64,000 nucleotides of DNA from a bacterium (GTDB lineage Bacteria > UBA10199 > 2-02-FULL-44-16 > JAAZCA01). The position numbers were made by a program, and so were the translations under genes. Shown here in pieces: positions 13 through 36,735 of this stretch (position 1 is the stretch's first letter; every line of letters starts with the position of its first letter). Location: contig CAXXGI010000001.1 in assembly GCA_963674695.2 (NCBI GenBank), positions 608,001-672,000 of the forward strand, read 5' to 3'. The notes beneath the pieces were generated by a model. It was not told the DNA's origin. It searched no databases and saw nothing but the letters and a program-made list of their open reading frames with translations.

Positions 13-40
13 GCAACAAACGCCCACGCCCTGCCGATAA
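13..40 (+). promoter_or_regulatory. sigma28/FliA-type promoter
   Basis: GCAACAAA-N12-GCCGATAA ahead of the RBS and ATG at 72; perfect sigma28 -10 element. Confidence 0.55.
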
Positions 41-71
41 TGGAGAGAGGGGAACGACACGGGAACTGAAC

Positions 72-635
72 ATGCGCAGTGGCGGTGGTGATGTGGGCAA
101 CGACGTGACGCGATTCTTTCGCGATATGTTCAACCTGCCGACGCGTTCATCCGAGGTCCGATTCGTCAACGAGGCCAGCGCTGCAGAGAAGGCCCCGCTC
201 GATCCGTGTGCATTTCTCAATAAATTTCACGATGTCAGCTCCTTCCAAAAAGCCGTCGAGGAACTCAAAGGAACCATCACGTGGCTCGGCCAACAGCGCG
301 GAACTCCGGGGGTCAAGCTCGCGACGATCGAGAGGGAACTCGTCCATCAGATGACCAGGCTGATCGAATGCGAGGCGATCCTCAACTCAAAACCGACATT
401 CCTCTCGCAGGGCGAGACGGTCAAGAAAACGAAACTGATCCGCGGCCTGCTCAACGACTGTCGCCGGGAGGCATCGCGCATCTCCGCACAGATCGTGAAA
501 CGCGTCACGCGCGAGGAACGCTCGCGCACCTTGAGCTGCGGATCACGGCTGCTGCGGCCGCAGGTCAAGCCCAAGCCGGCCGACTCCCCTGCGGTCAAAC
601 AGGATGCAACCCCTCCTCATAAACCAGAATCGTAG
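72..635 (+). CDS. hypothetical helical/coiled-coil protein, no signal peptide
   Basis: 187-aa ORF, purine-rich upstream region, promoter-like motif upstream. Confidence 0.6.
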   Translation: MRSGGGDVGNDVTRFFRDMFNLPTRSSEVRFVNEASAAEKAPLDPCAFLNKFHDVSSFQKAVEELKGTITWLGQQRGTPGVKLATIERELVHQMTRLIECEAILNSKPTFLSQGETVKKTKLIRGLLNDCRREASRISAQIVKRVTREERSRTLSCGSRLLRPQVKPKPADSPAVKQDATPPHKPES

Positions 636-697
636 AACCCCCTCCCCTTCTCCCCTTGTCTCGCAGGCCCTCTTGCCGCATACTGTCCTCATCACCT

Positions 698-1909
698 ATG
701 GATCCGATCATCATTCATGAACGGCAGCGCCGACGGCGATGGTTTCGCATGCGGGCCTTCACCTGGCTGCTCGTGCTCATCCTCTCGCTGCTGGTGGGGC
801 TGATGCTGTTGGGATGTCTTGCCTTCTCCGCACCGCCGTATGTCGGAGCACCCTCCGATCACTTCAACGGCGAGCAGTTCTTCAACCCGGGCGACGGAAA
901 CGATCGCTCCTTCGGAAGATTCCTCCACTGGATGTGGACGCGCGAGCCTGGTGCCTGGCTCGACTGGGTCGATGTGCCGCAGGGGGAGAAACCGCCGAGC
1001 CACGTGGGGGAAGGGAACCTGCGCGCCACGTTCGTCAACCATTCGACCGTGCTCATCCAGATGGATGGGCTCAACATCCTGACGGATCCGGTCTGGGCCG
1101 AGCGCATCGGACCGCTGCCGTGGCTCGCGGGCCCAAAACGCCACCGGCCGCCGGGGATCGCGTTCGACGATCTCCCGCATATCGATGTGGTACTCATCAG
1201 CCACAACCACTACGACCACCTCAATCTGCCCACGCTCAAACGCTTGGCGCTGGCACACCGTCCGGTCTTCATCGTGCCGCTCGGAAATAAGGCGCTGCTC
1301 GAAGCGGGCGGCATCGCCCCCGCCTTCGACCTCGACTGGTGGGATGAGCGCGCGCTCTCCTCGGAGGTCACCGTCACCGCGGTGCCCGCGCGTCACTTCT
1401 CCTCTCGAGGCTTGTGCGATCGCAACCGTACGCTCTGGGCCGGATTCGTCATTCAGGGACCGTCCGGCGTGGTCTACTTCGCCGGCGACACGGCCTGGGG
1501 CGAGCATATCCCGGAGATCCGTGAACGCTTCGGCCCACCACGACTGGCGCTACTCCCCATCGGCGCATTCATGCCAAAATGGTTCATGTCGCGCGCGCAC
1601 CTCTCGCCCGCTCAGACCATGCGCGCCCATCGCGAACTCGAGGCCGGCACGAGCATCGCGACGCACTTTGGCACCTTTCGCCTGGGCGACGACGGCATGT
1701 TCACGCCGGTCGAGGAGAGCTTCCGTGCGATGGACAAACAGGGGATCTCCCCGGTTCATTTTTGGGTGATGGAAAACGGCCAGGGGCGAGAGATCCCGCC
1801 GCTGGCAAAGGACGATCCCGCATCAGAAACCGCTGGTGACGAGCCCCCCGAGGACGGCGCCGTAAAAACTGGAGATATAGGGGTTGCGCGTGATCGGACA
1901 CGCCCCTGA
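698..1909 (+). CDS. MBL-fold metallo-hydrolase (NAPE-PLD/RomA-like), membrane-anchored
   Basis: SHNHYDHL, TDPVW, PARHFS, YFAGDT motifs; N-terminal TM; start assumed at ATG 698. Confidence 0.9.
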   Translation: MDPIIIHERQRRRRWFRMRAFTWLLVLILSLLVGLMLLGCLAFSAPPYVGAPSDHFNGEQFFNPGDGNDRSFGRFLHWMWTREPGAWLDWVDVPQGEKPPSHVGEGNLRATFVNHSTVLIQMDGLNILTDPVWAERIGPLPWLAGPKRHRPPGIAFDDLPHIDVVLISHNHYDHLNLPTLKRLALAHRPVFIVPLGNKALLEAGGIAPAFDLDWWDERALSSEVTVTAVPARHFSSRGLCDRNRTLWAGFVIQGPSGVVYFAGDTAWGEHIPEIRERFGPPRLALLPIGAFMPKWFMSRAHLSPAQTMRAHRELEAGTSIATHFGTFRLGDDGMFTPVEESFRAMDKQGISPVHFWVMENGQGREIPPLAKDDPASETAGDEPPEDGAVKTGDIGVARDRTRP

Positions 1910-1990
1910 CGCACAGCCGATGATGCGATAGAAGACGACATAGCCGACAACCGCTCCAATGATCACGCCGATGATGGTTTTCCACGGCAT
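1823..1990 (-). CDS. small membrane protein with GCxSGxCPIT motif (DUF6132-like)
   Basis: MPWKTIIGVIIG...GCASGACPITRNP; GGAGG RBS; follows trxA. Confidence 0.75.
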   Translation of the reverse strand: MPWKTIIGVIIGAVVGYVVFYRIIGCASGACPITRNPYISSFYGAVLGGLVTSGF

Positions 1991-2033
1991 ACAAACCTCC
2001 CCTTCAATACAGGGTGTACGTTCGTTCTGACAA

Positions 2034-2682: not shown

Positions 2683-4479
2683 ATGAGGAGATCATTTCCC
2701 CAGATGAATTTCGAAGCCCTGACAGCACGCGCACGCGAGCCGCATTCATCGACGGCCTTCGATCGCCGATCATTCGATCGCACCATTACATCCGTCGCCG
2801 ATGAGAGCGGCATGACCGCGCTGCGGCAGCAGAGCGTCGAAACCGTCGCCGCGGCAAAGGACCTGCTGGGGCTCAACGGATATTGTGCCGAATCCGGAAA
2901 GAATTCCCAGCTGTGCCGACCCATGTTCGGGCAGACGAGCGCCGCCACAATCATTGAAGAAGGCGCGGTCGTGGTCGAAAATATCGCCCTCGCCACCGGC
3001 GTGGCGCTCGTGGCCTGGGGCATGGGCGAGATCCTCGCTGCCGTCGGCGCATGGCTGGCAACGGCATCGACGGTCGAGGCCGGCATCGGCGCCGGAACGG
3101 GAATGATAGCGATCACCGCCGTCGCCTGCGGCGATGCAACCGAACCCTCCGAAGAAGTCATTCCCGATGGCGACATCGACCTGGACTTCCCCCTGCCCGA
3201 CGGCGACCGCGAACACCCCGAGTTTGCCCCCCATACAGACGGCGATGACGATTCCGTCGAGGGAGACGTCGAGATGGATCCCGCACTCTGCGGCAACGGC
3301 GCCATCGATCCGGGCGAGGAGTGCGAATCGAACGAATGGGGGGAATGGATCGGCTGCACCGACTGCCTGCTCGATCCCCAGCTCACCCTGCTCATCTCGC
3401 GCGTCGGCATTCCCGATGCCATCCGACGCGAAGAGGAACGCGCCATCTTTCGCATCGACGATGAGGAATCGCCTGCTATTCTCTGTTCGCTTCCCGAGCG
3501 CGATGCGAGCGGAACCTTTTCTCGCCTCCATCGTTTCGATAGCCGCACGTCGCTGACCACTTCGGTGCTGACCGGATTCTACGGCTCCCCTTGGCGCCAA
3601 GCCGCGGTCGATACCGAGACGAACTGGCTCTTCTACCAGATGCAAGAGTGGCAGGAGACGCGCCCGCGTCTGGTGCATGTTGACGACGGTATCGTCATCC
3701 CGCTGGAAGGGAAAGATGACGTCACGCTCGAAGGAATGGAGCGCGTCTGCGCCTCGCGGGATCTCACGCACCTGGGCGGCATCGCCCTCGTCGACGGCAG
3801 CCCCACCGATCCGGCGCGCACATTCCGGCGCACCTCGCTCAGCGATCTCATGGAGCGCAACGATCCGCCAAACCCCGCAGCGCAGGGCGTTCAGGTATAT
3901 GAAACGCTGCACGGGGAACTCGCCGCGGGCGCACGCGCCACGACCCATTGCATGGACGATAGGGGCAACGCCGCGATCGCCGGCTGGGACAGCGATCGCA
4001 ACGCCATCGGCGCGATCCTGCTCGTCGCGCCCGACAACAGCGTCACGCGCGTCGCACCGGATATCATCGCAAACGCATCAGCTTCGGCACCCGTCATCGC
4101 CCCCGAGGGCACGCTCTGCTTTCTGGCCATGGCAAGCGATGCCACGGAACTGATCTGCACCTCCGCCAACGACCCCGATGCGATCGAACGCAGCCCCGCC
4201 CCGGAGGCCGCGCGGGAGATCATCGGCATCAGCGACGATGGCCGCCAGGTCATCGCGTTCGACGGCGCACGCGCGCTCTCCCTCTTCGACCGCGAGTTAG
4301 GTCGCTGGATCGAACCGGATCTCGGCGGAATCACGCAGGGGGATATCATCGTCGCCGCCGCCGTGGCCGGCCGCTGGCTCTTCGTGCGCTCCGAATACAA
4401 CGACGGCGGTGACATCGCCACCGCCGTCTGGAGAATCTCTCTTGACGAGACGCTTACGGCTGTCCCTGCATCTCGATGA
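2683..4479 (+). CDS. hypothetical protein, module gene X copy 1 (N-terminal extension, Gly/Ala hydrophobic segment ending AVAC, acidic linker, myxococcal Cys repeat, propeller-like C-terminus)
   Basis: 598-aa ORF; paralog of 12726..14369; CGNGAIDPGEEC; start could be 2683 or 2704. Confidence 0.85.
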   Translation: MRRSFPQMNFEALTARAREPHSSTAFDRRSFDRTITSVADESGMTALRQQSVETVAAAKDLLGLNGYCAESGKNSQLCRPMFGQTSAATIIEEGAVVVENIALATGVALVAWGMGEILAAVGAWLATASTVEAGIGAGTGMIAITAVACGDATEPSEEVIPDGDIDLDFPLPDGDREHPEFAPHTDGDDDSVEGDVEMDPALCGNGAIDPGEECESNEWGEWIGCTDCLLDPQLTLLISRVGIPDAIRREEERAIFRIDDEESPAILCSLPERDASGTFSRLHRFDSRTSLTTSVLTGFYGSPWRQAAVDTETNWLFYQMQEWQETRPRLVHVDDGIVIPLEGKDDVTLEGMERVCASRDLTHLGGIALVDGSPTDPARTFRRTSLSDLMERNDPPNPAAQGVQVYETLHGELAAGARATTHCMDDRGNAAIAGWDSDRNAIGAILLVAPDNSVTRVAPDIIANASASAPVIAPEGTLCFLAMASDATELICTSANDPDAIERSPAPEAAREIIGISDDGRQVIAFDGARALSLFDRELGRWIEPDLGGITQGDIIVAAAVAGRWLFVRSEYNDGGDIATAVWRISLDETLTAVPASR

Positions 4480-6379
4480 GATCGAGCTGACACCGCGCAT
4501 CATTCCCGGTAAACGCTGCACACACCCGATATCGGAAGAGATTTATTGGATCCCCATTGATATACGGTTGCTGCATGACTTCAGGGGGTGCAAAGGTGTA
4601 TTCGATGCGATTGCCATTGCGGCAATAGCATAAAGCATGTTCTTCGCGCGCATCGTTACAAGAAGCCATATCAAGGCCAAAGTCATCACGTGGACCGAAT
4701 CGATCATAGAAGAGCTCATCGTATCCAGCCGGTTCAATCTCAAACATGGAGAGAACGCTGATCGACGCCGTATCCAGGTGTACCCCACTCATTTCGGGCT
4801 CAAATGGGCTGAAAAACTCCAAACAATTATCAACCCTATTGCCAGCCACGCGCGCGCACTCCGACTCTACTGCCTCGCGAAATGCCTGAAGCCACTGAAG
4901 CGAAGAACTCGCTTCGGTCGACCCATCATCGCGAGTCGAAATACCCGTTACAGGCACGCAAGCTCCTACATCGCGAAAGAGCATCGGCGTTTCCAACATA
5001 GATTCCATCCCATACTCCATGCGAAGGTCACGCGCCAGGCGCTCGTAGAGACAAACCCCGTTGGCATATTCGTCCGATCCAAAGGCCTCCGTTCGTTTCA
5101 CCATCGAACCACACTGATCTCGAAATGCAGGGATGACATCCGGGCAGTGATTCACAGAATCGACCGCGGGATAGAGCGGACAGCCGAGATCAGTGCCGCT
5201 CGTCACACTGCCGTACCGACATCGCGTTCCGTCCGCCGATGCCGTCATCCACTTGTTCTGACAGCCAACACACTTCTTCACATTGCGATCCCATATCTTG
5301 CCCATCTCCTCACAGCGCACACACCGCCGACCCTCTACCTTTCCCTTACACAGACAGCCCTCATCGGTCATGTCCGCATTTGGAATGCACTCACACTGCC
5401 CAGCACGATAGACCGCCGCAAGGTTCGGATGTGCCGGCACGCTCTCGCCCGCCATGGCACATCCGCATCCAGCTACACCCAGATAATTCCCCGTATCGTC
5501 GAAGTTACCCACCAACCGATAGTTCGGATCACTCGAAACACATGCCGTGCAAGTCATGTCCGCAAGCACAATTCCAGGACCGTCGTCGGGACAATTGCAC
5601 TGACCACCATCCATATAGGTTCCGCCTTCATACAAACCGGACTCCACCGCATCTCCCCGAGCCGTTTCGGGCTGCAACTCGCCCAAACAATTCGGACAAT
5701 GCGAGATATCCGCAAGGGCATTCCAGACATGGTGGATCTCACCATCCTTCTGTATGCGGAAAGAACACCCACACCAGCGCGGTTCATTTTCGGTCGTATA
5801 TCCGAGCAGCATGCGAATAAGCGGATTGAGTCGGAAGACCATGGAACCTGCCGGACAGGAACAGGAGAGGCCACGCGATTCCGCCCCGGTATAACAATCG
5901 CAACGCTCCTTCTCCTCGTTCCAACGACCATCCTCACACGCCACCCGCAGGCGAGCTTTCCCCAGATAGTCGATCGTCCCAAACTGGAACCCCGACCGTG
6001 CAGAAACTTTTCCCTCCGCATCACCGCCCGATACAATCAGATCCGTGCGCGCCTTCATCTGTTTGCCCATCGTCGCCATCGCAAGCGATGGAGATGCAAC
6101 CGGCTCAGCGATCGACACTACTTTTCCATCGATGCGCACGCGATCGGTGCCGACGAACTCCAGATCGAGTTTTTTGATCTGCGGCATGAGCTTCTCGGGC
6201 ATCCGCTGTTCCACCTTCACCATCGGCACCGCCTCTTTCTGCGGTGCTGCTTTCACCGCCGGTGCCGGCTTCGGCTTGCGCCCGAAGAGCTTGCCCCAGT
6301 CGAAGGCGTCGCTTCGGCCGGGCAGGCAGATGAGAACGGCGACGATGATGATGACGACCGATGCGTGTAGGCGTTTCAT
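4454..6379 (-). CDS. secreted Cys-rich protein, module gene Y copy 1
   Basis: Sec signal (MKRLH...SDA), GGAGG RBS, many CxC/CxxC motifs; paralog of 14372..15781. Confidence 0.85.
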   Translation of the reverse strand: MKRLHASVVIIIVAVLICLPGRSDAFDWGKLFGRKPKPAPAVKAAPQKEAVPMVKVEQRMPEKLMPQIKKLDLEFVGTDRVRIDGKVVSIAEPVASPSLAMATMGKQMKARTDLIVSGGDAEGKVSARSGFQFGTIDYLGKARLRVACEDGRWNEEKERCDCYTGAESRGLSCSCPAGSMVFRLNPLIRMLLGYTTENEPRWCGCSFRIQKDGEIHHVWNALADISHCPNCLGELQPETARGDAVESGLYEGGTYMDGGQCNCPDDGPGIVLADMTCTACVSSDPNYRLVGNFDDTGNYLGVAGCGCAMAGESVPAHPNLAAVYRAGQCECIPNADMTDEGCLCKGKVEGRRCVRCEEMGKIWDRNVKKCVGCQNKWMTASADGTRCRYGSVTSGTDLGCPLYPAVDSVNHCPDVIPAFRDQCGSMVKRTEAFGSDEYANGVCLYERLARDLRMEYGMESMLETPMLFRDVGACVPVTGISTRDDGSTEASSSLQWLQAFREAVESECARVAGNRVDNCLEFFSPFEPEMSGVHLDTASISVLSMFEIEPAGYDELFYDRFGPRDDFGLDMASCNDAREEHALCYCRNGNRIEYTFAPPEVMQQPYINGDPINLFRYRVCAAFTGNDARCQLDLIEMQGQP

Positions 6380-6599: not shown

Positions 6600-7175
6600 C
6601 TACCGACACCGCGCGCCCTCGCGCAGTTTGGCCCGCCCACGATGGAGGCGCACGCGCAGGGCTTCCGCGGTCAATCCCAGCATCTCGGCTGCTTCCTCAT
6701 GCGTATGCCCTTCGAAGTCGACGAGCGTGACCGCACGGCGCATGCCGTCGGGAAGTGAGGCCAGGGCCCTTTCCAGACAGGTGCGCAGCTGATCGCTCTC
6801 GATCAACTCCTCGGGCAACGAAACGCGACGATCGCCCGTGGGCGAAGGAAGATGCGCATGGCGCTCATGGACATCATGCGCATCGTGTCCGGACTCCTCC
6901 TGTTTGCGTCGCCGTTTCTTGATGCAAAGCGATTGCGCCACCTTATAGAACCAGTTCTTGACGGAAGCCTCATGGCGAAAACCAGGGAGTGCATCGATGG
7001 CCACGGCGAAGGTCTCCTGCAAGACCTCCTCGGCATCCTCGCGATTGCCACAGACGCGATGGCCATAGCGTTCCATCCGATCGAAATAGCGATGCACGAG
7101 CTCGGCCAATGCGTCGCGATCGCCCCCACGATAGGCCGCCACCAGGTCTCCATCATTTTTCTCGATGCCGGTCAT
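6600..7175 (-). CDS. ECF RNA polymerase sigma factor
   Basis: DAEEVLQETF region 2; region 4 HTH (EEAAEMLGLT...RVRLHRGR); GAGGAG RBS. Confidence 0.92.
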   Translation of the reverse strand: MTGIEKNDGDLVAAYRGGDRDALAELVHRYFDRMERYGHRVCGNREDAEEVLQETFAVAIDALPGFRHEASVKNWFYKVAQSLCIKKRRRKQEESGHDAHDVHERHAHLPSPTGDRRVSLPEELIESDQLRTCLERALASLPDGMRRAVTLVDFEGHTHEEAAEMLGLTAEALRVRLHRGRAKLREGARCR

Positions 7176-7256
7176 ATCACTCCTCATACAAAAGCCGGGC
7201 ATGTGGATCACAACTGAACACTGGGGTCAATGGAATCGCCGCACCATTTATAGAGG

Positions 7257-7295
7257 TTGACAATGCAGGGAATTGTTAGTAACATATGTTCATAA
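7257..7295 (+). promoter_or_regulatory. sigma70 promoter with overlapping palindrome AACATATGTT
   Basis: TTGACA-N17-TAACAT; palindrome 7281-7290; ATG at 7295 near the predicted transcription start. Confidence 0.6.
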
Positions 7296-7651
7296 TGGTG
7301 AGACCGACACTCCAACGCCGTGTAGCCGCCCAACCGAGGGTGCGTCACTTCAAACCGCAGGGGATCCCGCTGGCCGATCTGGCGGAGGTCCAATTGGCCG
7401 AAGACGGCCTGGAAGCCCTGCGGCTCGCCGATGTGGAGGGGCTCTACCACGATGAGGCGGCCCGACGCATGAACGTCTCGCGCCCCACCTTCGGACGCAT
7501 CCTGGCCACGGCCCGACGCACGGTCGCCGAGGCGATCACGATGGGGCACGCGATTCGCATCGAGGGGGGCAGCGTCGAACAGGTCGCCCCACCGCGCGGC
7601 GGCGGGCGCGGCCGAGGTCGCGGACGATGCCGACGTGGGTGGCAACGATAA
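7295..7651 (+). CDS. DUF134 family DNA-binding protein
   Basis: FKPQGIP...LEALRLADVEGL...AARRMNVSRPTF...IRIEGG. Confidence 0.9.
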   Translation: MVRPTLQRRVAAQPRVRHFKPQGIPLADLAEVQLAEDGLEALRLADVEGLYHDEAARRMNVSRPTFGRILATARRTVAEAITMGHAIRIEGGSVEQVAPPRGGGRGRGRGRCRRGWQR

Positions 7652-7678
7652 CGGATGTATACAACGAGGAGGTGGATC

Positions 7679-8388: not shown

Positions 8389-8406
8389 GATACCGAGGAG
8401 GTTCAT

Positions 8407-10345: not shown

Positions 10346-10357
10346 AGATCGCCCGCT

Positions 10358-10789: not shown

Positions 10790-10791
10790 TC

Positions 10792-11130: not shown

Positions 11131-11159
11131 TCGGACACTGATGTCACCGCGAGGGAGAC

Positions 11160-12725: not shown

Positions 12726-14369
12726 ATGGACCTGGGAACGATCAACGCCATGGGAATGCCTCTGAACGTACACACGCTCTCGCGACGGAACGACGCCACC
12801 GGCGCCGCTTGGCTACACGAGCGAAGCGTTGAGACCATCGCTTCCGGAAAACACCTCCTGGGGATCGATGGTTACTGCGCCGCACCAACAGCGAGCAGCA
12901 CATCTCACCTGCTGTGCACTCCTCTCATCGGACAAACCAGCCTCGCGGACATCTTCGAAGAAGCGGCCGTTCTCGTAGAGAACACCGCGCTGGCAATCGC
13001 CGGCACCATGGCCGTTGCCGGCGCCATCGCGGCAGCGGGCACGACGACGACCATCGGGGCCGCCGTAAGCGCCCTCCTCCTCATTGGCTGCACCGACGAT
13101 CACGCGACCGACGACAAGATCAACACCATCATCCATCCAGACGGCGACCGCGATCGCCCGGAGTTTGCCCCGCACACCGACGGCGATGAAGAAGTCGCGC
13201 AGGAGGAAGAGTGGGAGGAGGTGGACCCCGCGCTCTGCAGCAACGGCGAGCTCGACCCGGGCGAGGAGTGCGAGGCCAATTCGTATGGAGTCTGGATCGG
13301 TTGCACCGACTGCCTCCTCGATCCAAGCCTCACCAAGATCTTCTCGCACAGCATGGCGACCGCCGACTATCCCGAAACGACGGCCCCCAACCTGCAAGCC
13401 AAGGGGGACGACGGCATAATTGCCGTCTTCAGCGTTCCGAAGATCGACAGCGTCTCCCTCTATTCTTCCGTCCATGCCTTCGACGGCCGCACGGGGGAGA
13501 ACCCGCGCCTGGCGTCCGGCTACTACGGCATTCCCTGGCGCCAATCGGCCGTGAGCGACAACCTGGAACTCTTCGCCTATCAGATGGGGGGATGGGAGTT
13601 CACAACGCCGCGCGTCTTCGATCGCAATGGCGACGTCGATTATCTCCCGATCAGCGGCGTCGAGACGATGTGCACCTCCTCCGACCTCAGCTGGATCGGC
13701 GGCGTCACGCTCGCGAACGACCCGGACGATACACCGAGGGCGTTCTCCGTCGCGAAAATCTCCTTCGGTCGTAACGAGAATGATGTGCAGATCGTCGAGG
13801 GGATTGAACTCGCCCACGATGGGCTTCGCGACGAGCTTGCCGGCGGTGCCGTCGCCACGCGCCACTGTCTGGACGACGAGGGCTTCGGCGTCGTCGCCGC
13901 GCGAACGATGGACGGCATCGGCGCGCTCTATCTCGTCTCGCCGACGGGAGCATCACAGCGCATCGCCGATGAACTCACGCTCGCGAGCGCAGCGGTCATA
14001 TCGAGCGGCGGCATCATCGCCTTCCTCGCCCACAACGGTGACGCAAAGGACCTCGTCACCATCGATCGGCGCGACCCGGATACATGTATGCGCATCAGCG
14101 CACCACCGGGGGTCTCGCGCATCCACGACATCTCGCACGACGGCGCGAGCATCATCACCGACAGCGGCAGCGATGAAAGCGTTTACATCCGCCTGGCCGA
14201 AACGGACGAGTGGCGACTGACGAACACGGAATCGATCTCCGAGGACGAGCAGATCACGGCCGCCGTCATTCGCGGCACATGGATCTATCTGCAGACGAAG
14301 GATACGACCGGCGATCTCACGCGAACAAACATCTGGCGTTTGGCGCGCGAAGGGGAAACAACGAGGTGA
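12726..14369 (+). CDS. hypothetical protein, module gene X copy 2
   Basis: 547-aa paralog of 2683..4479 (DGDRxxPEFAPHTDGD, DPALCxNG...GEEC...WIGCTDCLLDP, YGxPWRQxAV). Confidence 0.85.
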   Translation: MDLGTINAMGMPLNVHTLSRRNDATGAAWLHERSVETIASGKHLLGIDGYCAAPTASSTSHLLCTPLIGQTSLADIFEEAAVLVENTALAIAGTMAVAGAIAAAGTTTTIGAAVSALLLIGCTDDHATDDKINTIIHPDGDRDRPEFAPHTDGDEEVAQEEEWEEVDPALCSNGELDPGEECEANSYGVWIGCTDCLLDPSLTKIFSHSMATADYPETTAPNLQAKGDDGIIAVFSVPKIDSVSLYSSVHAFDGRTGENPRLASGYYGIPWRQSAVSDNLELFAYQMGGWEFTTPRVFDRNGDVDYLPISGVETMCTSSDLSWIGGVTLANDPDDTPRAFSVAKISFGRNENDVQIVEGIELAHDGLRDELAGGAVATRHCLDDEGFGVVAARTMDGIGALYLVSPTGASQRIADELTLASAAVISSGGIIAFLAHNGDAKDLVTIDRRDPDTCMRISAPPGVSRIHDISHDGASIITDSGSDESVYIRLAETDEWRLTNTESISEDEQITAAVIRGTWIYLQTKDTTGDLTRTNIWRLAREGETTR

Positions 14370-14371
14370 GG

Positions 14372-16194: not shown

Positions 16195-16221
16195 GCAACT
16201 TTTCCCCCGAACGAACGATAC
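16195..16221 (+). promoter_or_regulatory. sigma28-type promoter (degenerate)
   Basis: GCAACTTT-N11-AACGATAC. Confidence 0.4.
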
Positions 16222-16279: not shown

Positions 16280-19200
16280 ATGACCAAGACACGCATCGCC
16301 CTCATCCTCACCCTCATCCTGATGATTTTCCTGGCCCTTCCCGAAAGCGCCTTCGCTGCCGATGGCGATGGCGACGGGTGGCAGGATGCCGCGGAAATCC
16401 TCTGCGGCACCGATGAAACCAATGTCGCCGACATGCCGACCGATACCGACGGTGATGGCGTTTGCGACGTCCTGGAAGATTCCGACCTCGACGGCGATGG
16501 GTTCTCCGCCGGCGTCGAAATGCTGTGCGGATCGGATCCGGCCGATGCGGGCGATGTGCCGACCGATACCGATGGCGATGGCGACTGCGACACGATCGAC
16601 GCCGATCGCGACGGCGATGGCTGGTACGATGCGATCGAAGACGGCTGCGGCACCGACCCGGCCGATGCGGGCGATGTGCCGACCGATACCGACGGCGATT
16701 CGATCTGCGACGCGATGGAAGTCTCCGACCGCGATGGCGACGGCGTCGTCGATGCGATCGAAACGCTCTGCGGTTCGAATCCGGCCGATGCCGGTTCGAT
16801 CCCGACCGACACCGATGCCGACGGCGACTGCGATGCCATCGACGCCGACCGCGACGGCGATGCGTGGGCCAATACGATGGAGACCGCTTGCGGCACCGAT
16901 GCGGACAACGCCGCCGACGTGCCGACCGACACTGACGGTGACAACGTCTGCGATGCGATGGAAGACGGCGACACCGACGGCGATGGGGTGGAAAACGCGG
17001 TCGAGACCGTCTGCGGGTCGGACCCCGCCAATGCGGCATCAACCCCGACCGACACCGATGGTGACGGCGACTGCGACGCGATCGACGATGACGACGATGC
17101 CGATGGATGGATCGACGCGCTCGAGACAGCCTGCGGAAACGATCCTGTCGATGCAGGGGACATACCGACCGACACGGATACCGACGGCATCTGCGACCTG
17201 ATGGAGACGGCCGATCTCGACGGCGACACCTATGCCAACGCGCATGAAACGCTGTGTAACTCCAACCCAAGCGATGCGGGGTCAACGCCGCCGGACACGG
17301 ACGGCGACGGCACCTGCGATGCGATCGACCCCGACATCGATGCGGACGGCTGGATCAACGAACTGGAGACGCTCTGCGCGACGGATCCGAGCGACAACGC
17401 CTCGATCCCGGTCGACACCGACGGCGATGGCCTCTGCGATGCGATGGAGACGGCCGACATCGACGGCGACGGTTTTGAAAATGCGATCGAGACGATGTGC
17501 GGATCCGACCCGGCCGATGCGGGTTCGACGCCGGCCGATGCGGATGGCGACGGCACCTGCGATACGCTCGACGCCGACACCGACGGCGATGGCTTCGGCA
17601 ACGACATCGAGACCGTCTGTGATTCCGATCCCAATGATGCGGGCGACACCCCGACCGACACCGATGGCGATGGCACCTGCGATGCCCTCGAAGATGACGA
17701 CCTCGACGGCGACGGTTTTGCCTCGGCCATCGAAGCGCTCTGCGGATCCGACCCCGCCGATGCGGGCGACACCCCTGCGGATGCCGATGGCGACGGCGAC
17801 TGCGATGCCATCGATGCCGACATCGACGGCGACACCTGGGCGAACACGATGGAAACCGCTTGCGGCACCGATCCGAACAACGCCGCCGACGTGCCGACCG
17901 ACACCGATGGCGATCTGATCTGCGATGCGATGGAGCAGGATGACATCGACGGCGACGGCGTGGCCAATGTCATCGAGGATCTCTGCGACTCGGATCCGGC
18001 CGACGCGGGTTCGACGCCGACCGACAGCGATGCCGACGGCACCTGCGACACGCTCGACGCCGACCGCGATGGCGACGGGTGGAGCAATGCTATCGAAGCC
18101 CCCTGCGGCACGAGTGCGGACAACGCCGCGGACATCCCGCTCGACCTGGACGCCGACGGCGTCTGTGACGCGATGGAGGATGCTGATACCGACGGCGACG
18201 GCTCCACCGACGCCGAAGAAAACCTGTGTGGATCAGATGCGAACAACGCGGCCGTTACGCCCATCGATGCCGCACACGACGCGGACGGCGATGGAACGTG
18301 CGACGCCCTCGACGCCGATCGCGATGGCGACGGCTGGGACGACACGATCGAGACCGGCTGCGGCACCGACCCCGCCGATGGAGCGGACGTCCCCGCCGAC
18401 ACCGACGGCGATCTGATCTGCGATGCGATGGAGGTCGCCGACATCGATGGCGACGGATTCTCCAATGCCTTGGAAACCATCTGCGGATCCTCCACGACCG
18501 ACGCGTTGGAAACGCCCACGGACATCACGCGCGACATCGACGGCGACGGCACCTGTAACGAACTCGACGCCGACCGCGATGGCGACGGATGGGACGACAC
18601 GATCGAAGCTCCCTGTGGCACCGACCCGGCCGACGGAGGCGACACGCCTGCCGACACCGACGGCGATTCGATCTGCGACGCGATGGAGATCGCCGACACC
18701 GACGGCGACGGATTCTCCAACACCTTAGAGACGATCTGCGGATCCTCCACGACCGTTGCCGGGCAGACGCCGATCGATGCCACGCGCGACATCGACAGCG
18801 ACGGCACCTGTAATGCCCTGGACAACGATCAGGATGGCGACGGCTGGATCAACGATATCGAAACCCTCTGCGGATTCGACGCGGCCGATGCCGCCTCGAT
18901 TCCGGCCGATGTGGATGGCAACGGCATCTGCGATGCCCTGCAGGATCCGGCTCGTCCGGTGATCACCGCACTCACGATCGACGGCGTTGCGGGCCCCGCC
19001 ACCAAGGATGAAGGCACGGTGGTCACCTTGGGCGTCACCGCCAGCGATCCGCTGAACGACACGCTCACCTATCTCTATACGCGCGTGAGCGGACCGGCCG
19101 TCGTTTTGCCGGGCGGCGATGGAACCAATACCCTCGCCGTCACGCTTCCGAGCGTGGCCGGTGACGAACAGCTTATCATCCGCGTGGCCGTTCAGAATGA

Positions 19201-21775
19201 ACGCGGGCTCATCTCTCTCCCCGAGACGGCGACGATCACCGTGAATGCCATCAACCAGGCGCCCGTCGCGCGCATCGGCGGCAACTTCACCGTCGGCGAA
19301 CAGGAGGATATCTTCCTCTCGGGAGCGGAAAGCTCTGATGCGGACGGCAATGCGCTCACCTACGCCTGGGTGCTCACCGATAACGGCGGCGGCACCTGCA
19401 ACTTGACCGTCGCGAATCAGATGGAGACGCGCGTGACAACGAATATCGTCAACGCCGCGACGAACTGCACGATTCAACTGGTCGTCAACGACGGCATCAC
19501 CAATTCAGTCGCAGCCATCGAAACGCTCACGGTCCTCAACACCGACAATACCGAGCCGGAGGTGACGACCGTGCGCCTGACCGACACCGGTGGCGGGGAC
19601 ACGACCTACAACCTCCCAGCCTCTATCGGCCCCTATGCGATGAACGAAAACGAAACGCTCACGATTGCGGTGACCGCCACCGACGACGATGGCGATCCGC
19701 TGGTCTATCGCTATACGCAGATCGCGGGGGCGAGCCTCAACCTCCCTGCGGAGGATGACGATTCCGTCGATGTGGGCATCCCCGAGATTGCCGGCATCGC
19801 GAATGACACGATCGTCATCCGCATCGACGTCGATGATGATCAGGGCGGCACGAGCACGCCGGTCTTCGCGATCATCACCGCCGCACAGGTGGATCGCGCA
19901 CCGGTGGCGAACGCCGGCCCCGATCACGCGGCCAACGAGGGCGACCTGGTGACGCTCGATGGAACGGAGAGTGCCGACCCGGACACCGACGCCCTCACGC
20001 TCACCTGGGAGCAGATCGACGCCAACCCGGCGCTGCCGGAATTTGTCGCCGGCGGCGGCACACTCGTCGGCATGCGCGTGCAATTCACCGCACCGAGCAC
20101 GCTCACCGCGGATACGACCTACAGCTTCCGCGTGACTGCTGATGACGGCCGCGGACAAACCGCAACCGATGATGTCGACGTCATCGTGCGCAACAGCCAG
20201 AACGCTGTGCCGACGATCGTGCTCGGCGATCAGACCGTCGATGAAGGCGACATCGTCACCGTCACCGCGATAGTGACCGAACCCGACACGATCGGAGGTG
20301 GGAACGAACAGCAGGTCCACACCTCCACCTGGATGCAGACCGGCGGTCCAGACGTCGATATCACCGTCAACGGGGTCGATCAGGACGAGTTCAGCTTCGA
20401 TGCCCCGACCGTGAATGCACAGACCGACTTCACTTTCCGCCTGATGGTCTCCGATGGTCGTGGCGGAGTCGCGATGGGCACTGCGGTGATCACGGTGCGC
20501 AACAACGTCAACGAAGCGCCGGTGGCAAAGGCGGGCGTGGATCGCACGGTCTCCGAGCAGACCACCGTCGTCCTCGACGGCACGCGTTCGTATGATGACA
20601 ACGATCCGAATAAAGAGAATCTCACCTTCGCGTGGACGCAGACGGCCGGAACCGCGGTGACGATCGATGCGGCCAACGCTCAGGTCGCCACCTTCGTCTC
20701 GCCGAAGGTCGTCGAGGCGGGCCAGACGCTCACCTTCGAACTCACCGTCAGCGACAACGACGCCACCGATCCGAAGACAGCGACCGATACGGTGACGATC
20801 ACGATCACCAACGACGTGAATGAAATGCCCACCGTCGACGCCGGCGACGACGTCATCACCGGCGAGGGTCAGGCCGTCACGCTCACCGCGGTCGGCACCG
20901 ATGAGAACGAGGCCGATGACTCAACGCTCACCTATTCCTGGGTGCAGATATCCGGAACGACGGTGACGCTCGAGGATGCCGATACGGCCGCGATGAGTTT
21001 CACCACGCCCACGGGAGAGCGCAACACGACGCTCGTCTTCGCGGTCACCGTCACCGATCCGGAGGGCGACTCGGCAACCGACACGATCACCGTCGATGTG
21101 CGCGATCTGTTTCTGTCGTGCGCACAGACCGAGATCATCGCCGCGAACGGCGAGGAGGTGACCATCGAGTGCACCGCCCAGACGGGTGAGGATGCAGCGG
21201 CTATCTTCTATGAGATCGTCGCGATCAATGGCCAGAGCACAGGCGGAGTGGCGCGTGCAGCCGAAGAGGAGTACATCACACCGGTGGAATTCTCCGTCGC
21301 CACCGATCCGACGGCGCCGATGTTCGACCTCACCGCGCCGGCAACAATCGATTTCTCCGCAGCGGCCGCGCCATCATCACAAACCTACAACGTGGCCCTT
21401 CCCTCGCAGGACTTCGAGATCACGCTCGCGATCGGAGAGAATCAGCAGACGACCTACGAGGCGCGGCAGACCTGGATCCGCACCGCCGTGCTGCCGACGA
21501 TCGATTCGCTCGACGGCATACGCTACACGATCCGCGCAACGGCTGTGAGCCAATACGGCAGCGAGGATGCCGCCGACGTGGTCATCACCACCGAGCCCCC
21601 CTTCTCTATCGGCGGAGGCGGTGGCCGTGGCATGTTTGGTCTGGGTATGATGGGATGCCAGCTCAACGCCCGCGCGAACGAACACCCCAGCCGCAATTCG
21701 TTCATCGCGTTCCTGTTCCTCCTCATGAGCACGTTCGGCGCCATCCTCATCTTCCGCCGCGCACGGTCGCAGTGA
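16280..21775 (+). CDS. giant surface protein: signal peptide, 21 TSP3-like Cys-paired repeats, PKD/cadherin-like Ig repeats, GC-TM-RR C-terminal sorting tail
   Basis: 1831 aa; DxDGDG..E..CGxDP..PxDxDGDGxCD units; PVANAGPD/LTFAWTQTAG units; tail GGGG..GCQL..TM..RRARSQ. Confidence 0.92.
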   Translation: MTKTRIALILTLILMIFLALPESAFAADGDGDGWQDAAEILCGTDETNVADMPTDTDGDGVCDVLEDSDLDGDGFSAGVEMLCGSDPADAGDVPTDTDGDGDCDTIDADRDGDGWYDAIEDGCGTDPADAGDVPTDTDGDSICDAMEVSDRDGDGVVDAIETLCGSNPADAGSIPTDTDADGDCDAIDADRDGDAWANTMETACGTDADNAADVPTDTDGDNVCDAMEDGDTDGDGVENAVETVCGSDPANAASTPTDTDGDGDCDAIDDDDDADGWIDALETACGNDPVDAGDIPTDTDTDGICDLMETADLDGDTYANAHETLCNSNPSDAGSTPPDTDGDGTCDAIDPDIDADGWINELETLCATDPSDNASIPVDTDGDGLCDAMETADIDGDGFENAIETMCGSDPADAGSTPADADGDGTCDTLDADTDGDGFGNDIETVCDSDPNDAGDTPTDTDGDGTCDALEDDDLDGDGFASAIEALCGSDPADAGDTPADADGDGDCDAIDADIDGDTWANTMETACGTDPNNAADVPTDTDGDLICDAMEQDDIDGDGVANVIEDLCDSDPADAGSTPTDSDADGTCDTLDADRDGDGWSNAIEAPCGTSADNAADIPLDLDADGVCDAMEDADTDGDGSTDAEENLCGSDANNAAVTPIDAAHDADGDGTCDALDADRDGDGWDDTIETGCGTDPADGADVPADTDGDLICDAMEVADIDGDGFSNALETICGSSTTDALETPTDITRDIDGDGTCNELDADRDGDGWDDTIEAPCGTDPADGGDTPADTDGDSICDAMEIADTDGDGFSNTLETICGSSTTVAGQTPIDATRDIDSDGTCNALDNDQDGDGWINDIETLCGFDAADAASIPADVDGNGICDALQDPARPVITALTIDGVAGPATKDEGTVVTLGVTASDPLNDTLTYLYTRVSGPAVVLPGGDGTNTLAVTLPSVAGDEQLIIRVAVQNERGLISLPETATITVNAINQAPVARIGGNFTVGEQEDIFLSGAESSDADGNALTYAWVLTDNGGGTCNLTVANQMETRVTTNIVNAATNCTIQLVVNDGITNSVAAIETLTVLNTDNTEPEVTTVRLTDTGGGDTTYNLPASIGPYAMNENETLTIAVTATDDDGDPLVYRYTQIAGASLNLPAEDDDSVDVGIPEIAGIANDTIVIRIDVDDDQGGTSTPVFAIITAAQVDRAPVANAGPDHAANEGDLVTLDGTESADPDTDALTLTWEQIDANPALPEFVAGGGTLVGMRVQFTAPSTLTADTTYSFRVTADDGRGQTATDDVDVIVRNSQNAVPTIVLGDQTVDEGDIVTVTAIVTEPDTIGGGNEQQVHTSTWMQTGGPDVDITVNGVDQDEFSFDAPTVNAQTDFTFRLMVSDGRGGVAMGTAVITVRNNVNEAPVAKAGVDRTVSEQTTVVLDGTRSYDDNDPNKENLTFAWTQTAGTAVTIDAANAQVATFVSPKVVEAGQTLTFELTVSDNDATDPKTATDTVTITITNDVNEMPTVDAGDDVITGEGQAVTLTAVGTDENEADDSTLTYSWVQISGTTVTLEDADTAAMSFTTPTGERNTTLVFAVTVTDPEGDSATDTITVDVRDLFLSCAQTEIIAANGEEVTIECTAQTGEDAAAIFYEIVAINGQSTGGVARAAEEEYITPVEFSVATDPTAPMFDLTAPATIDFSAAAAPSSQTYNVALPSQDFEITLAIGENQQTTYEARQTWIRTAVLPTIDSLDGIRYTIRATAVSQYGSEDAADVVITTEPPFSIGGGGGRGMFGLGMMGCQLNARANEHPSRNSFIAFLFLLMSTFGAILIFRRARSQ
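16361..18946 (+). repeat. intragenic tandem repeat, 21 units of ~120-132 bp in alternating A/B types
   Basis: counted from the translation. Confidence 0.9.
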
Positions 21776-22212: not shown

Positions 22213-22578
22213 ATGTCTGAAATACAGCTCGGCATTCGTTTTCACATCCCTGACACATTCGGCTTTCAACCGATAGAATCCCTGCCAAAGAAATCGCTCT
22301 TTACCAATGAATCGTCCAAGGAAATGATGCGTTCGCTGAAGCAGAAACCCCTGCGCCTGCAGCTCACACTCAACGGCATCATGAGCAGACCGCAAGGACA
22401 TCGCATCAGCGGAGGGCTGAACCTGCGCAAATTCCTGAACTCGCTCTGGATGCAGGAGCAGCACCTACCTCCGCACATGGATGTGCCTATGGATGTGCCT
22501 TTTTCTGAGCTTGACGGATTCGAGCTGGGCCTGGAGAACCTCCTGCACGGGTCGTCCCCATTTCCCCGGCTCGACTGA
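22213..22578 (+). CDS. hypothetical protein, no signal peptide
   Basis: AGGAGGT RBS; promoter upstream. Confidence 0.65.
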   Translation: MSEIQLGIRFHIPDTFGFQPIESLPKKSLFTNESSKEMMRSLKQKPLRLQLTLNGIMSRPQGHRISGGLNLRKFLNSLWMQEQHLPPHMDVPMDVPFSELDGFELGLENLLHGSSPFPRLD

Positions 22579-22628: not shown

Positions 22629-23300
22629 ATGTTTCGTCTGCGCCTGCCCATCCTCATCTCGCTTGCCATTCACCTGACCCTCATCGGCGCAGTGGTTCTG
22701 GGTGCGCTCTTCATCGTGCACGATGAAGCGCCCCAACTCGGCGGCATCGGCGGTGCGGGGGGCGAGGTCGTCGATGTCTGGCTTGCCGGGCCACGCGGCG
22801 AGACGTTCGGTGAGAGGGCGGCGCTCAGGGGCACAGAGGAGCGAGCGCGCGCGAAGGCGCGGCGACGAATTCTTCGGCGAAAGACAACCAAACGGGAAGA
22901 GGGGGAAACAACGCGTCGAACGGTCGTGCACGCCGGCGCGGGCACGAGCGCGGGAGTGGGCAGCGGTCTCGGCACGGGCGTGGGCAGCGGCGCGGGCGTG
23001 GGAACGGGATCGAGCGTGGGCGCAGGCAGCGGCGGCCCGAGCGTCCTGGCCGAGATCTGGAAGCGCATCAACCGAAACAAATACTATCCCTCGATGGCGC
23101 GGCGCCAGGGGCTCGAGGGGAAACCCAAGGTGACCTTCGTCATCGACGGCGATGGCTCGATCGCGCGCGTCCACCTGGCTCAGTCCTGCGGTTCGAGCGT
23201 TCTGGACAACGCCGCCATCGAAACGATCCGGCGCGCCGCCCCGCTCCCCTTCTATGCGGGGCCGATCACGGTGACGGTGCGCTATTCGCTTGAGGAGTAA
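22629..23300 (+). CDS. TonB family protein
   Basis: N-terminal TM with SxxxH; YPSMARRQGLEG; SCGSSVLDNAA...AAPLP. Confidence 0.88.
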   Translation: MFRLRLPILISLAIHLTLIGAVVLGALFIVHDEAPQLGGIGGAGGEVVDVWLAGPRGETFGERAALRGTEERARAKARRRILRRKTTKREEGETTRRTVVHAGAGTSAGVGSGLGTGVGSGAGVGTGSSVGAGSGGPSVLAEIWKRINRNKYYPSMARRQGLEGKPKVTFVIDGDGSIARVHLAQSCGSSVLDNAAIETIRRAAPLPFYAGPITVTVRYSLEE

Positions 23301-23305
23301 ACGGC

Positions 23306-24205
23306 ATGATCCAGATTCGTCGCAAAAAGGAGAAACCGAAGGGCCAGGCGCTCGGCTCTATCAAGGAGTCTCCCAAAAAGGAATCGGGCGGCACGTATGT
23401 CGGCGCCTTTCCGGGAAAGCCGTGGGAACGACTCACCGAACGCTTTCACCGCCGCGGATCGAGACTGCTCACCCTCTCCGATGAGGAGCAGCGCGAGGTC
23501 GTTGAGCTGGCCCGACGATTCTTCGGCTGTGTGAACGACGATTTCCCTCGCGCGCGCATCGCGATCCAGACGGCGCTGGACGCGCCGACGGAGAAGGCGG
23601 CGCGACACTTCTTCGAAGTGACGCTCTTTCCGGAGAAGCGGCTCGTCGTGCGCGCCTACCTCACCAACGCCTCGGGGCGCTTCATCGAGCATGAGAACGC
23701 GCTCGCGCTGCTCACCCATATCGCCAATGCCGGGCTCGACTTCGAGGTCGGCGCCATCGACCATGTCATCGATACGGAACTTCGCACGGAGCTGATCGTC
23801 GGCGACGGGACGGAGGTGATCTCGGCCACCGGCTACTGGTTCGCGCACACCCATCCGGCGCGCGCCGGGGTCACCGAGAACATCCTGCCCTCGACGCAGG
23901 ACATCGACGTGATGGTGCTGACCGCACACGCCTGGGCGCAGCATGGTCATCGATGGGAGACGGAGTATTATGTCCTGCGCGATATCGGGGGGACGCGCGT
24001 GAGGATCGAAACGAACAAACCGGAGGGGCCGGCGCCCGCGACGATCGAGGGCGTCGCCATCGCCTACTGGTTCGACGGCGACGACGCCTCCGCCGTCGAC
24101 CGACACCGCCGTGCCCTCGAGGCCCACCTGCGCATGCGCCATCATATCACCGCAGATCAACTCACAGTCCGCCGCGAGTCCTCGCGCGAGAGCATCTCTC
24201 CGTAG
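23306..24205 (+). CDS. hypothetical protein with JAB/MPN-like metal motif
   Basis: FAHTHP...ILPSTQD; upstream Glu in IEHE. Confidence 0.65.
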   Translation: MIQIRRKKEKPKGQALGSIKESPKKESGGTYVGAFPGKPWERLTERFHRRGSRLLTLSDEEQREVVELARRFFGCVNDDFPRARIAIQTALDAPTEKAARHFFEVTLFPEKRLVVRAYLTNASGRFIEHENALALLTHIANAGLDFEVGAIDHVIDTELRTELIVGDGTEVISATGYWFAHTHPARAGVTENILPSTQDIDVMVLTAHAWAQHGHRWETEYYVLRDIGGTRVRIETNKPEGPAPATIEGVAIAYWFDGDDASAVDRHRRALEAHLRMRHHITADQLTVRRESSRESISP

Positions 24206-34874: not shown

Positions 34875-35251
34875 GTACCATTCGCGACGTCATGATCAAA
34901 AAAGTCCACACGGTTCAAGAAAACGACGATGTAAAAAAGGTCTGCCGCATCCTCACCAAGCACAAGATCAGCGGCACTCCGGTGATCAATGCAAAGGGAA
35001 AGCTCGTCGGCTTCGTCTCCGAGCGCGACATCATCGCCGCCGTCCCGCGTGCGGGGTTCCTGGAGAACACCGCTGGCCGTCTCATGACGCGCAAGGTCGC
35101 CACCGTCTGTCCCGATGACCCGATCACACATGCCTCGAAGATATTCTCCCAGCGCAACTTTCGGCTGCTGCCCGTGATCAAGGCAGGAAAGATCGTCGGC
35201 ATGGTCGCCCGCAAGGGGCTGATCGAGCACATCCTCGGCGATTACTATTGA
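34871..35251 (+). CDS. CBS-domain protein
   Basis: IRDVM, ISGTPVIN..GKLVGFVSERD; ATGA overlap with GH65. Confidence 0.9.
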   Translation: MSTIRDVMIKKVHTVQENDDVKKVCRILTKHKISGTPVINAKGKLVGFVSERDIIAAVPRAGFLENTAGRLMTRKVATVCPDDPITHASKIFSQRNFRLLPVIKAGKIVGMVARKGLIEHILGDYY

Positions 35252-35364
35252 TTCGAAAAAGCGCGAGATGGCTGGATCGCTAAATCATGAGATGGCAAAA
35301 CACAAGAGCTCTTTGCTATCTCACCATTAAGCCATCTCACAATCTTACTACCGTGGAGCACACA

Positions 35365-36594
35365 ATGGCCAAGAAAAAAATCGCAAAGAAAACACCTCAG
35401 AAATCACCCTCAAAGAAAAAAAGAAAGCTGCGCATCGCCCAGATGCACTGGGGCTATCCCCCGATCATCGGCGGTGTGGAGACGCATCTTGCCCTCATGT
35501 TGCCCGAGATGGCTCGCTATGGGCATGAGGTGCATCTGCTGACGGGTTCCGTCGAGGGCTGCAAGGTGCACTACCTCGATAGAGGCGTCCACATCCGGCG
35601 CACGCCGCTGATGGACTTGAACTGGCTTTTCAAGCGCGGGCTACACGGTCTGGAAGAGGAGATCGAGCACCGTTTCACGCAATACATTCAGAACACCCGC
35701 CCCGACGTGATGCACGTGCACAACATGCACTACTTCAGCCGCGAACACACCGAGATCCTCGAAACCCTCTGCAAAACAAAGGGAATTCCGCTCGTGCTCA
35801 CCGCGCACAACGTCTGGGACGACGTGCTCTACCTGGAGATGGCGCACAACATCGGATGGGATCACATCATCGCCGTGTCGCACTTCATCCGCAAGGAGCT
35901 CATCGGAATAGGGCTTCCCGACGCGAAGGTCACGACCATCCACCACGGCGTGGACACCAACGTCTTCCACCCGAAGGTCGATACGCGGCGCGCCTACCGA
36001 GACTATCCGCAGCTGAGGGATAAGCAGATCATCTTCCATCCCGCGCGCATGGGCATGGCCAAGGGCTGCGACGTCTCGATCAAGGCCTTCAATATCATCC
36101 ACAAACATTTTCCGGATGCAATGCTGGTGCTGGCCGGCACGAAGAACATCATCGATTGGGGTTCCACGCAGCAGAAGGACATCGCCTACTTCGTCAACCT
36201 CATCCGTTACTTCAAGCTCGAGAAGAGGATCATGGTCGACTCCTATGCGCTCGACCAGATGCCGGGGCTCTACGGCGTCGCCGATGTCGTCATCTATCCC
36301 TCCACCGCGCAGGAGCCGTTTGGGCTTACGATGCTGGAGGCGATGGCGACGGCAAAGCCCATGGTCGTCACGCGCGCCGGCGGCATGCCCGAGATCATCA
36401 GCGACGGCATCAACGGCTTTGTTATTCCGCCCAAGGACTTCGAAGAACTCGCCGGCGTCATCATGCGCCTCTTGGGCGATGCCGAACTGCGACAGCGCTT
36501 CGGCAACACCGGCAAGCGAATGGTCGATGCCTCCTATACGAAGGAAGTGATGACGCAGAACAACATCGATATCTACGAACAGTTGCTCCGCTAG
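35365..36594 (+). CDS. GT4 glycosyltransferase with Lys-rich N-terminus
   Basis: PPIIGGVE, EPFGLTMLEAMA, GGMPEII. Confidence 0.93.
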   Translation: MAKKKIAKKTPQKSPSKKKRKLRIAQMHWGYPPIIGGVETHLALMLPEMARYGHEVHLLTGSVEGCKVHYLDRGVHIRRTPLMDLNWLFKRGLHGLEEEIEHRFTQYIQNTRPDVMHVHNMHYFSREHTEILETLCKTKGIPLVLTAHNVWDDVLYLEMAHNIGWDHIIAVSHFIRKELIGIGLPDAKVTTIHHGVDTNVFHPKVDTRRAYRDYPQLRDKQIIFHPARMGMAKGCDVSIKAFNIIHKHFPDAMLVLAGTKNIIDWGSTQQKDIAYFVNLIRYFKLEKRIMVDSYALDQMPGLYGVADVVIYPSTAQEPFGLTMLEAMATAKPMVVTRAGGMPEIISDGINGFVIPPKDFEELAGVIMRLLGDAELRQRFGNTGKRMVDASYTKEVMTQNNIDIYEQLLR

Positions 36595-36614
36595 AGAGCA
36601 TCGCGTCGCATACC

Positions 36615-36645
36615 AAAAAATGGCCTCCTCGAGGCCATTTTTTTT
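36615..36645 (+). terminator. intrinsic terminator
   Basis: AAAAAATGGCCTC-CTC-GAGGCCATTTTTTTT. Confidence 0.85.
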
Positions 36646-36708
36646 GGACCGAATCCAGCGACAATCCATGCCAATGTCAATATGACGCCTCGCCGAATGA
36701 AATACCGC

Positions 36709-36735
36709 GAAACATTGTCGCGCCTTTGCCGATAC
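36709..36735 (+). promoter_or_regulatory. sigma28/FliA-type promoter
   Basis: GAAACATT-N11-GCCGATAC. Confidence 0.55.

Follow-up and report, generated by a model that had tools for sequence, protein, structure and literature searches.

Promoters read by extracytoplasmic function (ECF, group 4) sigma factors have an AAC followed by a run of T as the defining feature of their -35 element (PMC5758882). The ECF factor SigD of M. abscessus recognizes GTAAC(A/G)-N16-CGAT, a motif derived from 72 chromatin immunoprecipitation sequencing (ChIP-seq) sites (PMC13537577). The B. subtilis promoters of the SigW/SigV type have the form tGAAACnTTTt ... CGTA/CGTC. Promoters of the sigma28 family (FliA, SigD, WhiG) are written TAAA(G)-N15-GCCGATAA, where GCCGATAA is the -10 consensus (PMC12784957, PMC8325347). 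Sigma28 specifically reads TCTAAAG (PMC12784957), and in its promoters a GC pair acts as an extended -10 element. A published search rule for such promoters accepts TAAA and GCCGATAA with at most two mismatches (PMC8325347). Here we analyse a 64-kb stretch of bacterial DNA, called the window in what follows (GenBank assembly GCA_963674695.2, contig CAXXGI010000001.1, positions 608,001 to 672,000), in which a motif made of two blocks is repeated upstream of largely uncharacterised genes. The initial annotation of this stretch assigned the motif to a FliA-like regulon and stated that FliA-type promoters mark attack-phase genes in Bdellovibrio. This background is correct, as TTAAG-N16-CCGATA is found at 92 of 140 attack-phase promoters (PMC3627812).

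The motif, RMAACWTY-N11-RMCGATAM, is present at 2499, 12675, 16195, 22146 and 36709, exactly the five positions initially listed. All five sites are on the + strand, no other match exists on either strand of the window, and the chance expectation is 0.01 (100 shuffles). Since this pattern was fitted to its own sites, plainer and less circular tests were applied. With only eight fixed bases, AAC-N16-CGATA, six matches were found on the two strands (128 kb) compared to 1.01 expected, and none of 100 shuffles reached six. Five of these matches are the strict sites, each of them intergenic and pointing at the next gene, intergenic DNA making up ~5.3 kb of the 64 kb in our own gene map. The sixth, at 24843, is within a gene on the opposite strand. 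Two-block matrices were also constructed from four sites and used to score the fifth. The left-out site scored between 18.8 and 24.2, none of the 10 shuffles run for each matrix exceeded 18.3, and the window has no non-site position scoring above it. In an unbiased tally of spaced words, with 3+4 pairs counted 5' of genes and 4+4 pairs counted in intergenic DNA, the pairs derived from the motif did not exceed the shuffles. CTTT-N13-CGAT (five segments) and ACTT-N14-CGAT (four segments) came near the top rank, the shuffle maximum being 4-5; words so short give too little power for a decision. A looser copy at 13, with a 12-nt spacer, brings the window sites to six. Across all six, the AAC of the -35 block and the CGATA of the -10 block are invariant. 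The -10 block is GCCGATAA at three of them (13, 2499 and 22146) and contains GCCGATA at four, and the distance is AAC-N16-CGATA at five sites and AAC-N17 at site 13. Additional likeness, in the form of GGAAAA and CAC boxes, is seen 5' of the -35 block. The two-part motif is real and repeated, and it is carried by at least four unrelated genes.

The sites had been described as lying just 5' of genes. This holds for the strict sites, which are 25-60 nt from the start codons and in the same orientation, with the exception of 2499. Alignment with relatives indicates that the gene 3' of this site more likely starts at 2704 than at 2683, and the leader is therefore ~175 nt long. A sigma-type promoter is by far the best reading of the motif, because two conserved blocks enclose a spacer that is constant in length and free in sequence, the orientation never changes and the start codons follow at 25-60 nt.

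We propose that the five strict sites, perhaps with the copy at 13 and a degenerate site at 45725(-), are probably promoters read by one ECF (group 4) alternative sigma factor, the likeliest candidate being the product of 6600-7211(-). That the reader is of the ECF type appears quite probable from the promoter elements, and its assignment to this local gene is tentative. The AAC, followed by a T-run as in the M. abscessus SigD and B. subtilis promoters, is found at all six window sites and at an orthologous site in a related genome (see below). At all six window sites, CG opens the -10 element at a distance of 16-17 nt from the AAC, and the CGAT core is that of SigD. A literature search for CGATA-containing ECF promoters yielded no relevant paper. 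The ECF reading is favoured because of the AAC and T-run in the -35 block, the likeness to the SigD motif and the presence of an ECF sigma gene among the sites. Moreover, three of the predicted targets look like envelope proteins, the usual cargo of ECF factors. In the proposed mechanism, the -35 element would be (C)AC G/A M AAC TTT and the -10 element (GC)CGATA(A/C), beginning 16 nt after the AAC. The active sigma factor, most likely the one encoded among the sites, would switch on a small and mostly local set of lineage-specific genes. Its members would be an anchored, adhesin-like repeat protein of giant size, the two membrane-protein paralogs, an operon with a TonB-like gene, and two or three small orphans.

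Promoter-like sites, candidate reader and putative target genes in the window. Scores are those of the two-block matrix.
Feature	Position	Strand	Evidence	Associated gene
Promoter-like site ACAACTTT-N11-GCCGATAA	2499..2525	+	Exact match; leave-one-out 24.2 vs shuffle maximum 18.3	2683/2704-4479
Promoter-like site ACAACTTT-N11-ACCGATAA	12675..12701	+	Exact match; leave-one-out 23.8	25 nt 5' of 12726-14369
Promoter-like site GCAACTTT-N11-AACGATAC	16195..16221	+	Exact match; leave-one-out 19.4	59 nt 5' of the 1831-aa repeat-protein gene
Promoter-like site GAAACTTC-N11-GCCGATAA	22146..22172	+	Exact match; leave-one-out 20.2	41 nt 5' of 22213-22578
Promoter-like site GAAACATT-N11-GCCGATAC	36709..36735	+	Exact match; leave-one-out 18.8	30 nt 5' of 36765-37400
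Looser copy GCAACAAA-N12-GCCGATAA	13..40	+	Score 13.9, chance range	32 nt 5' of 72-635
Possible degenerate seventh site CCAACTTT-N10-GTGGATAA	45700..45725	-	Score 13.4, chance range	31 nt 5' of ATG 45669
Weak candidate for a self-regulating promoter, TCAACCTC-N12-GGCGATTC (AAC-N17-CGAT)	7233..7260	-	Sequence inspection	
ECF (group 4) sigma gene	6600..7211	-	Pfam Sigma70_r2, r4_2, Sigma70_ECF; likely start ATG 7174 behind AGGAG	
Singleton orphan, 187 aa, putative target of the looser site	72..635	+	Homology search returned only itself	
Orphan protein, putative target	2683..4479	+	Conserved N-terminal region, hydrophobic segment, Cys-rich CxNGxxDPGEECE motif, beta-rich C-terminal domain	
Paralog of the 2683 gene, putative target	12726..14369	+	Same family architecture, alignment	
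1831-aa surface protein, putative target	16280..21775	+	Signal peptide; TSP3, PKD and cadherin-like repeats; C-terminal Gly/Cys, membrane-helix, basic tail	
Singleton orphan, 121 aa, putative target	22213..22578	+	Homology search returned only itself	
TonB_C gene	22629..23300	+	Closely spaced after 22213-22578	
Gene without assigned family	23306..24205	+	Closely spaced after the TonB_C gene	
Orphan, 211 aa, putative target	36765..37400	+	AGGAGG before ATG; between a glycosyltransferase gene and trehalose genes	

A single genome scan, with the sigma protein as query, returned one close relative, a 20.5-kb locus (L001) in the metagenome-assembled genome of an uncultured Myxococcales bacterium. 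Both loci share the gene order 16280 ortholog, small membrane gene, Fe-S gene cluster, sigma gene, thioredoxin gene, metallo-beta-lactamase-fold gene. The sigma ortholog is 68% identical and the 16280 ortholog 66% identical to the window proteins. The latter is preceded, at (-)4724, by GCAACTTT-N11-CGCGATAA, the top match of L001 (score of 19.0, the highest of 40 shuffles being 15.7). When this site is compared with 16195, no base differs in the CGATA or in the -35 block and its CAC prefix; only four of 11 spacer bases agree and the flanks cannot be aligned. The second match in L001, (+)19865 before a uridine-kinase-like gene, is not significant (score of 11.4). The local sigma factor is suggested as the reader because its gene has kept this order with the 16280 ortholog and its predicted promoter.

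The protein encoded by 6600-7211(-) scores 92.9 bits against the NCBIfam model TIGR02937 (cut-off 42.9). Only this superfamily model passes its cut-off, no equivalog or subfamily model matching, and the closest solved relatives are SigE, SigW and RpoE. Five of the six sites are within 16 kb of the gene, and no strict site is found in the 36.8-64 kb part of the window.

Several observations weigh against this assignment or against the ECF reading as a whole. The clustering of sites near the sigma gene is weak evidence, because the window was picked for holding sites and L001 was picked through the sigma gene. ECF systems commonly show self-regulation and an adjacent anti-sigma gene. Here, no convincing copy of the motif precedes 6600-7211: the lone N17 candidate, at 7233-7260, is weak, overlaps the reverse complement of a + strand sigma70-like TTGACA and is not conserved in L001. 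Likewise, Pfam and NCBIfam scans of the window and L001 revealed no recognisable anti-sigma domain beside the sigma gene, which is followed in L001 by the thioredoxin gene. The spacing of the two blocks fits sigma28 and ECF promoters equally well. Unlike in known ECF promoters, the -10 block extends to (GC)CGATA(A/C), and GCCGATAA with its GC pair is the textbook sigma28 element (PMC12784957, PMC8325347).

The -10 block could also be explained by a FliA/WhiG-family (sigma28, group 3) sigma factor that prefers AAC to TAAAG in the -35 element and runs a broad non-flagellar life-stage regulon. Both the -10 block, with the counts given above, and the spacing are those of TAAA(G)-N15-GCCGATAA, the spacing being identical to that of E. 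coli TAAAGTTT-N11-GCCGATAA. An equivalent of the 15-nt sigma28 spacing is found at five of the six sites, site 13 being one base longer, and the variant -10 blocks keep the CGA core (ACCGATAA at 12675, AACGATAC at 16195 and GCCGATAC at 36709). Four of the six window sites pass the published TAAA/GCCGATAA rule, and a search of the window for TAAA-N15-GCCGATAA with at most two mismatches gave eight matches compared to 1.81 expected, four of them sites of the initial annotation. There is precedent for sigma28 control of non-flagellar, surface-protein and uncharacterised genes: Bdellovibrio FliA and Streptomyces/Rubrobacter WhiG are comparable cases, pilus genes being under WhiG control (PMC8325347). 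Taxonomy leaves room for FliA: flagellar assembly is reported to be encoded by some uncultured anaerobic Myxococcota genomes (bioRxiv 10.1101/2021.07.06.451402). The density of six strong sites in 84.5 kb, both loci taken together, would be in keeping with a large regulon were it maintained over the whole genome. However, the TAAA core is found at none of the six window sites, which have ACAA, ACAA, GCAA, GAAA, GAAA and GCAA, each followed by C, nor at the conserved L001 site; the positions read by sigma28 vary and the AAC is invariant. Moreover, no flagellar, chemotaxis, FlgM, type III or sigma28-type gene was found in the window (69 open reading frames in the Pfam scan) or in the 20.5 kb of L001 (15 open reading frames). 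To our knowledge, no member of the sigma28 family is known to use AAC in the -35 element; our literature searches were not designed to exclude one. In Myxococcota, ECF sigma factors vastly outnumber those of the sigma28 type. A sigma28 reader is thus decidedly unlikely in our view. What stands of the FliA-like regulon is an alternative-sigma-type promoter common to unrelated lineage-specific genes and a sigma28 -10 element; the -35 AAC is of the ECF type, and an ECF sigma factor is encoded nearby. The associated suggestion that effectors leave through a flagellar or type III system is without support, with no such genes found in either locus, and sits poorly with the Sec-type signal peptide of the 16280 protein and the membrane-protein features of two others.

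If the promoters are of the ECF type, the factor reading them may be encoded elsewhere in the genome, the local gene being a bystander. All the arguments from promoter type apply equally to a distant factor, Myxococcota genomes usually hold dozens of ECF sigma factors, and the absence of a clear self-regulating motif and of an adjacent anti-sigma gene points the same way. Against this, the linkage of the local sigma gene to the 16280 gene with its motif has been retained in L001, the one related genome available, and the sites cluster on the local sigma gene's side of the window. We regard a distant reader as somewhat unlikely. It is highly improbable that the motif is not a promoter at all and represents instead a transcription-factor binding site or a remnant of duplicated or mobile sequence. 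Such an origin would account for the location of 12675 and 16195 within a duplicated upstream region that starts with a ~140-nt module, for the paralogy of the genes preceded by 2499 and 12675, for the GGAAAA/CAC likeness and for the 4+4 pair count not exceeding shuffles in intergenic DNA. It fits poorly with two blocks in fixed orientation, held apart by an unconserved spacer of fixed length 25-60 nt before starts, and with the presence of the motif before at least four unrelated genes. Sequence identity between the 2683 and 12726 proteins is only 35%, and the motif common to their genes is therefore not the residue of a recent duplication. In addition, the orthologous site of L001 has kept only the two blocks, and these match known sigma elements.

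The one unusual point is the pairing of an ECF-style -35 element with a full sigma28-style -10 element. This could define a hybrid promoter class in which AAC and T-run are joined to the extended -10 block GCCGATAA, a proposal that we consider unlikely. Its reader could be a sigma28/WhiG-family factor with changed -35 specificity that uncultured, probably anaerobic Myxococcota have co-opted for a non-flagellar programme of stage or surface genes; alternatively, it could be an ECF factor that converged on the sigma28 -10 element. The finding opens no new sort of biology. If confirmed, the preferred reading by an ECF factor would give a handle on one regulon of a barely sampled lineage, with its sigma factor, its promoter and a co-switched set of surface and orphan genes that cannot be annotated. 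It also calls for caution in promoter scans, as scanning for the sigma28 -10 element catches these sites although their -35 element points to an ECF factor. TAAA is intact in just one of the window's matches, TAAAG...ACCGATAT at 30792-30818, which has two mismatches to the sigma28 consensus; it is located within a histidine kinase gene and has probably arisen by chance.

Genes were called from Pfam and NCBIfam scans and a codon-usage score. The genes downstream of the sites are mostly true, lineage-specific orphans, in line with the initial description, homology searches having found few or no relatives. A search of 5.8 billion sequences with the 2683 protein, limited to near-length proteins (328-1047 aa), returned three proteins: itself, the 12726 paralog and one relative (P0002) at 64% identity. 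For the 36765 protein, no credible relative was found among 1.84 billion representatives. Besides itself, the search gave three weak matches, which were rejected as repeat or low-complexity resemblance to unrelated large proteins. Five of the targets had no Pfam or NCBIfam match, the protein atlas provided no usable match and a search of solved structures no credible one. The AlphaFold models of the 12726 protein (pLDDT 41, low confidence, built from three sequences) and the 36765 protein (pLDDT 36, unreliable) are both too poor for fold searching. As initially noted, five of the six site-linked proteins have no N-terminal signal peptide when the translations are judged by eye, the 16280 protein being the only one with such a peptide. 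The internal hydrophobic segment of the 2683 and 12726 proteins suggests that they are membrane proteins, so that three targets look like Sec-exported or membrane (envelope) proteins. The CxNGxxDPGEECE Cys-rich repeat and the MYXO-CTERM-like tails are Myxococcota-type features and, with the Myxococcales label of L001, suggest that the window comes from a Myxococcota-like bacterium. Within the 1831-aa protein, the Asp-rich TSP3-like repeats are encoded by ~10 tandem units of 243-255 nt (81-85 aa) between 16353 and 18943. The genes of 22213-24205 are inferred to form one operon.

The looser copy at 13 is present as initially described, and its score cannot be distinguished from chance, since shuffles contain ~4 positions above 12 and reach maxima of 15-19. 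It is plausible as a promoter solely through its position before ATG 72. The 11-mer GCAACAAACGC is common to this site and the borderline L001 site (+)19865. The possible seventh site precedes the gene of a secreted protein, 43855-45669(-), with a C-terminal tail similar to the one on the 16280 protein. The leader of the 2683 gene contains a diverged copy of a palindromic element resembling repetitive extragenic palindromes (REP) or miniature inverted-repeat transposable elements (MITE), and this leader folds strongly (-70.2 kcal/mol, z -4.4). The element, with the core GTCATTCCCGCGAAGGCGGGAATC, is found at 2563-2660, 24223-24274 and 27944-28012, where 27944/28012 form a perfect inverted pair.

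The 2683 and 12726 genes belong to a duplicated convergent two-gene module (2683-6379 and 12726-15802). In each copy, the + strand orphan membrane protein faces a - strand Cys-rich secreted protein (4454-6379 and 14372-15802), and the two Cys-rich proteins look like paralogs by eye. A CTCGATA stretch precedes both of their genes with no AAC at the right distance, and these genes therefore do not carry the motif. The 641-aa open reading frame 4454-6379 has low coding potential in all six frames and atypical codon usage; it may be a recently acquired or fast-evolving gene. The ~140-nt module exists in two 80% identical copies, 12483-12619 and 15981-16117, whose likeness runs on into the predicted promoters 12675 and 16195. 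It spans the 5' end of the small membrane gene 12159-12503(-) and divergent intergenic DNA. In L001 the 16280 ortholog directly adjoins the ortholog of this small membrane gene, which suggests a joint insertion of the 12726 gene, its partner and a copy of the promoter region.

Between the sigma gene and the small membrane gene, 7286-12119 form a cluster typical of anaerobes, with a DUF134-like regulator, NifX-like proteins, two MinD/ParA-type 4Fe-4S ATPases, NifU and a radical SAM enzyme. The cluster has been kept in L001 save for the radical SAM gene, and the sigma70-like sequence TTGACA-17-TAACAT is found at 7257-7285. Just 5' of the sigma ortholog, L001 contains a tandem duplication of CATGGGAACCTCCTG (two copies, 9891-9925). 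A masked stretch of 10 N is located at the start of its metallo-beta-lactamase-fold gene (12204-12213), and its G+C content is 67.5% compared to ~60% for the window. Rfam and tRNA scans of the window gave no matches. Finally, 63062-63523(-) encodes a STAS-domain protein of the anti-sigma-antagonist type, a hint that the genome has a partner-switching sigma system at another locus.

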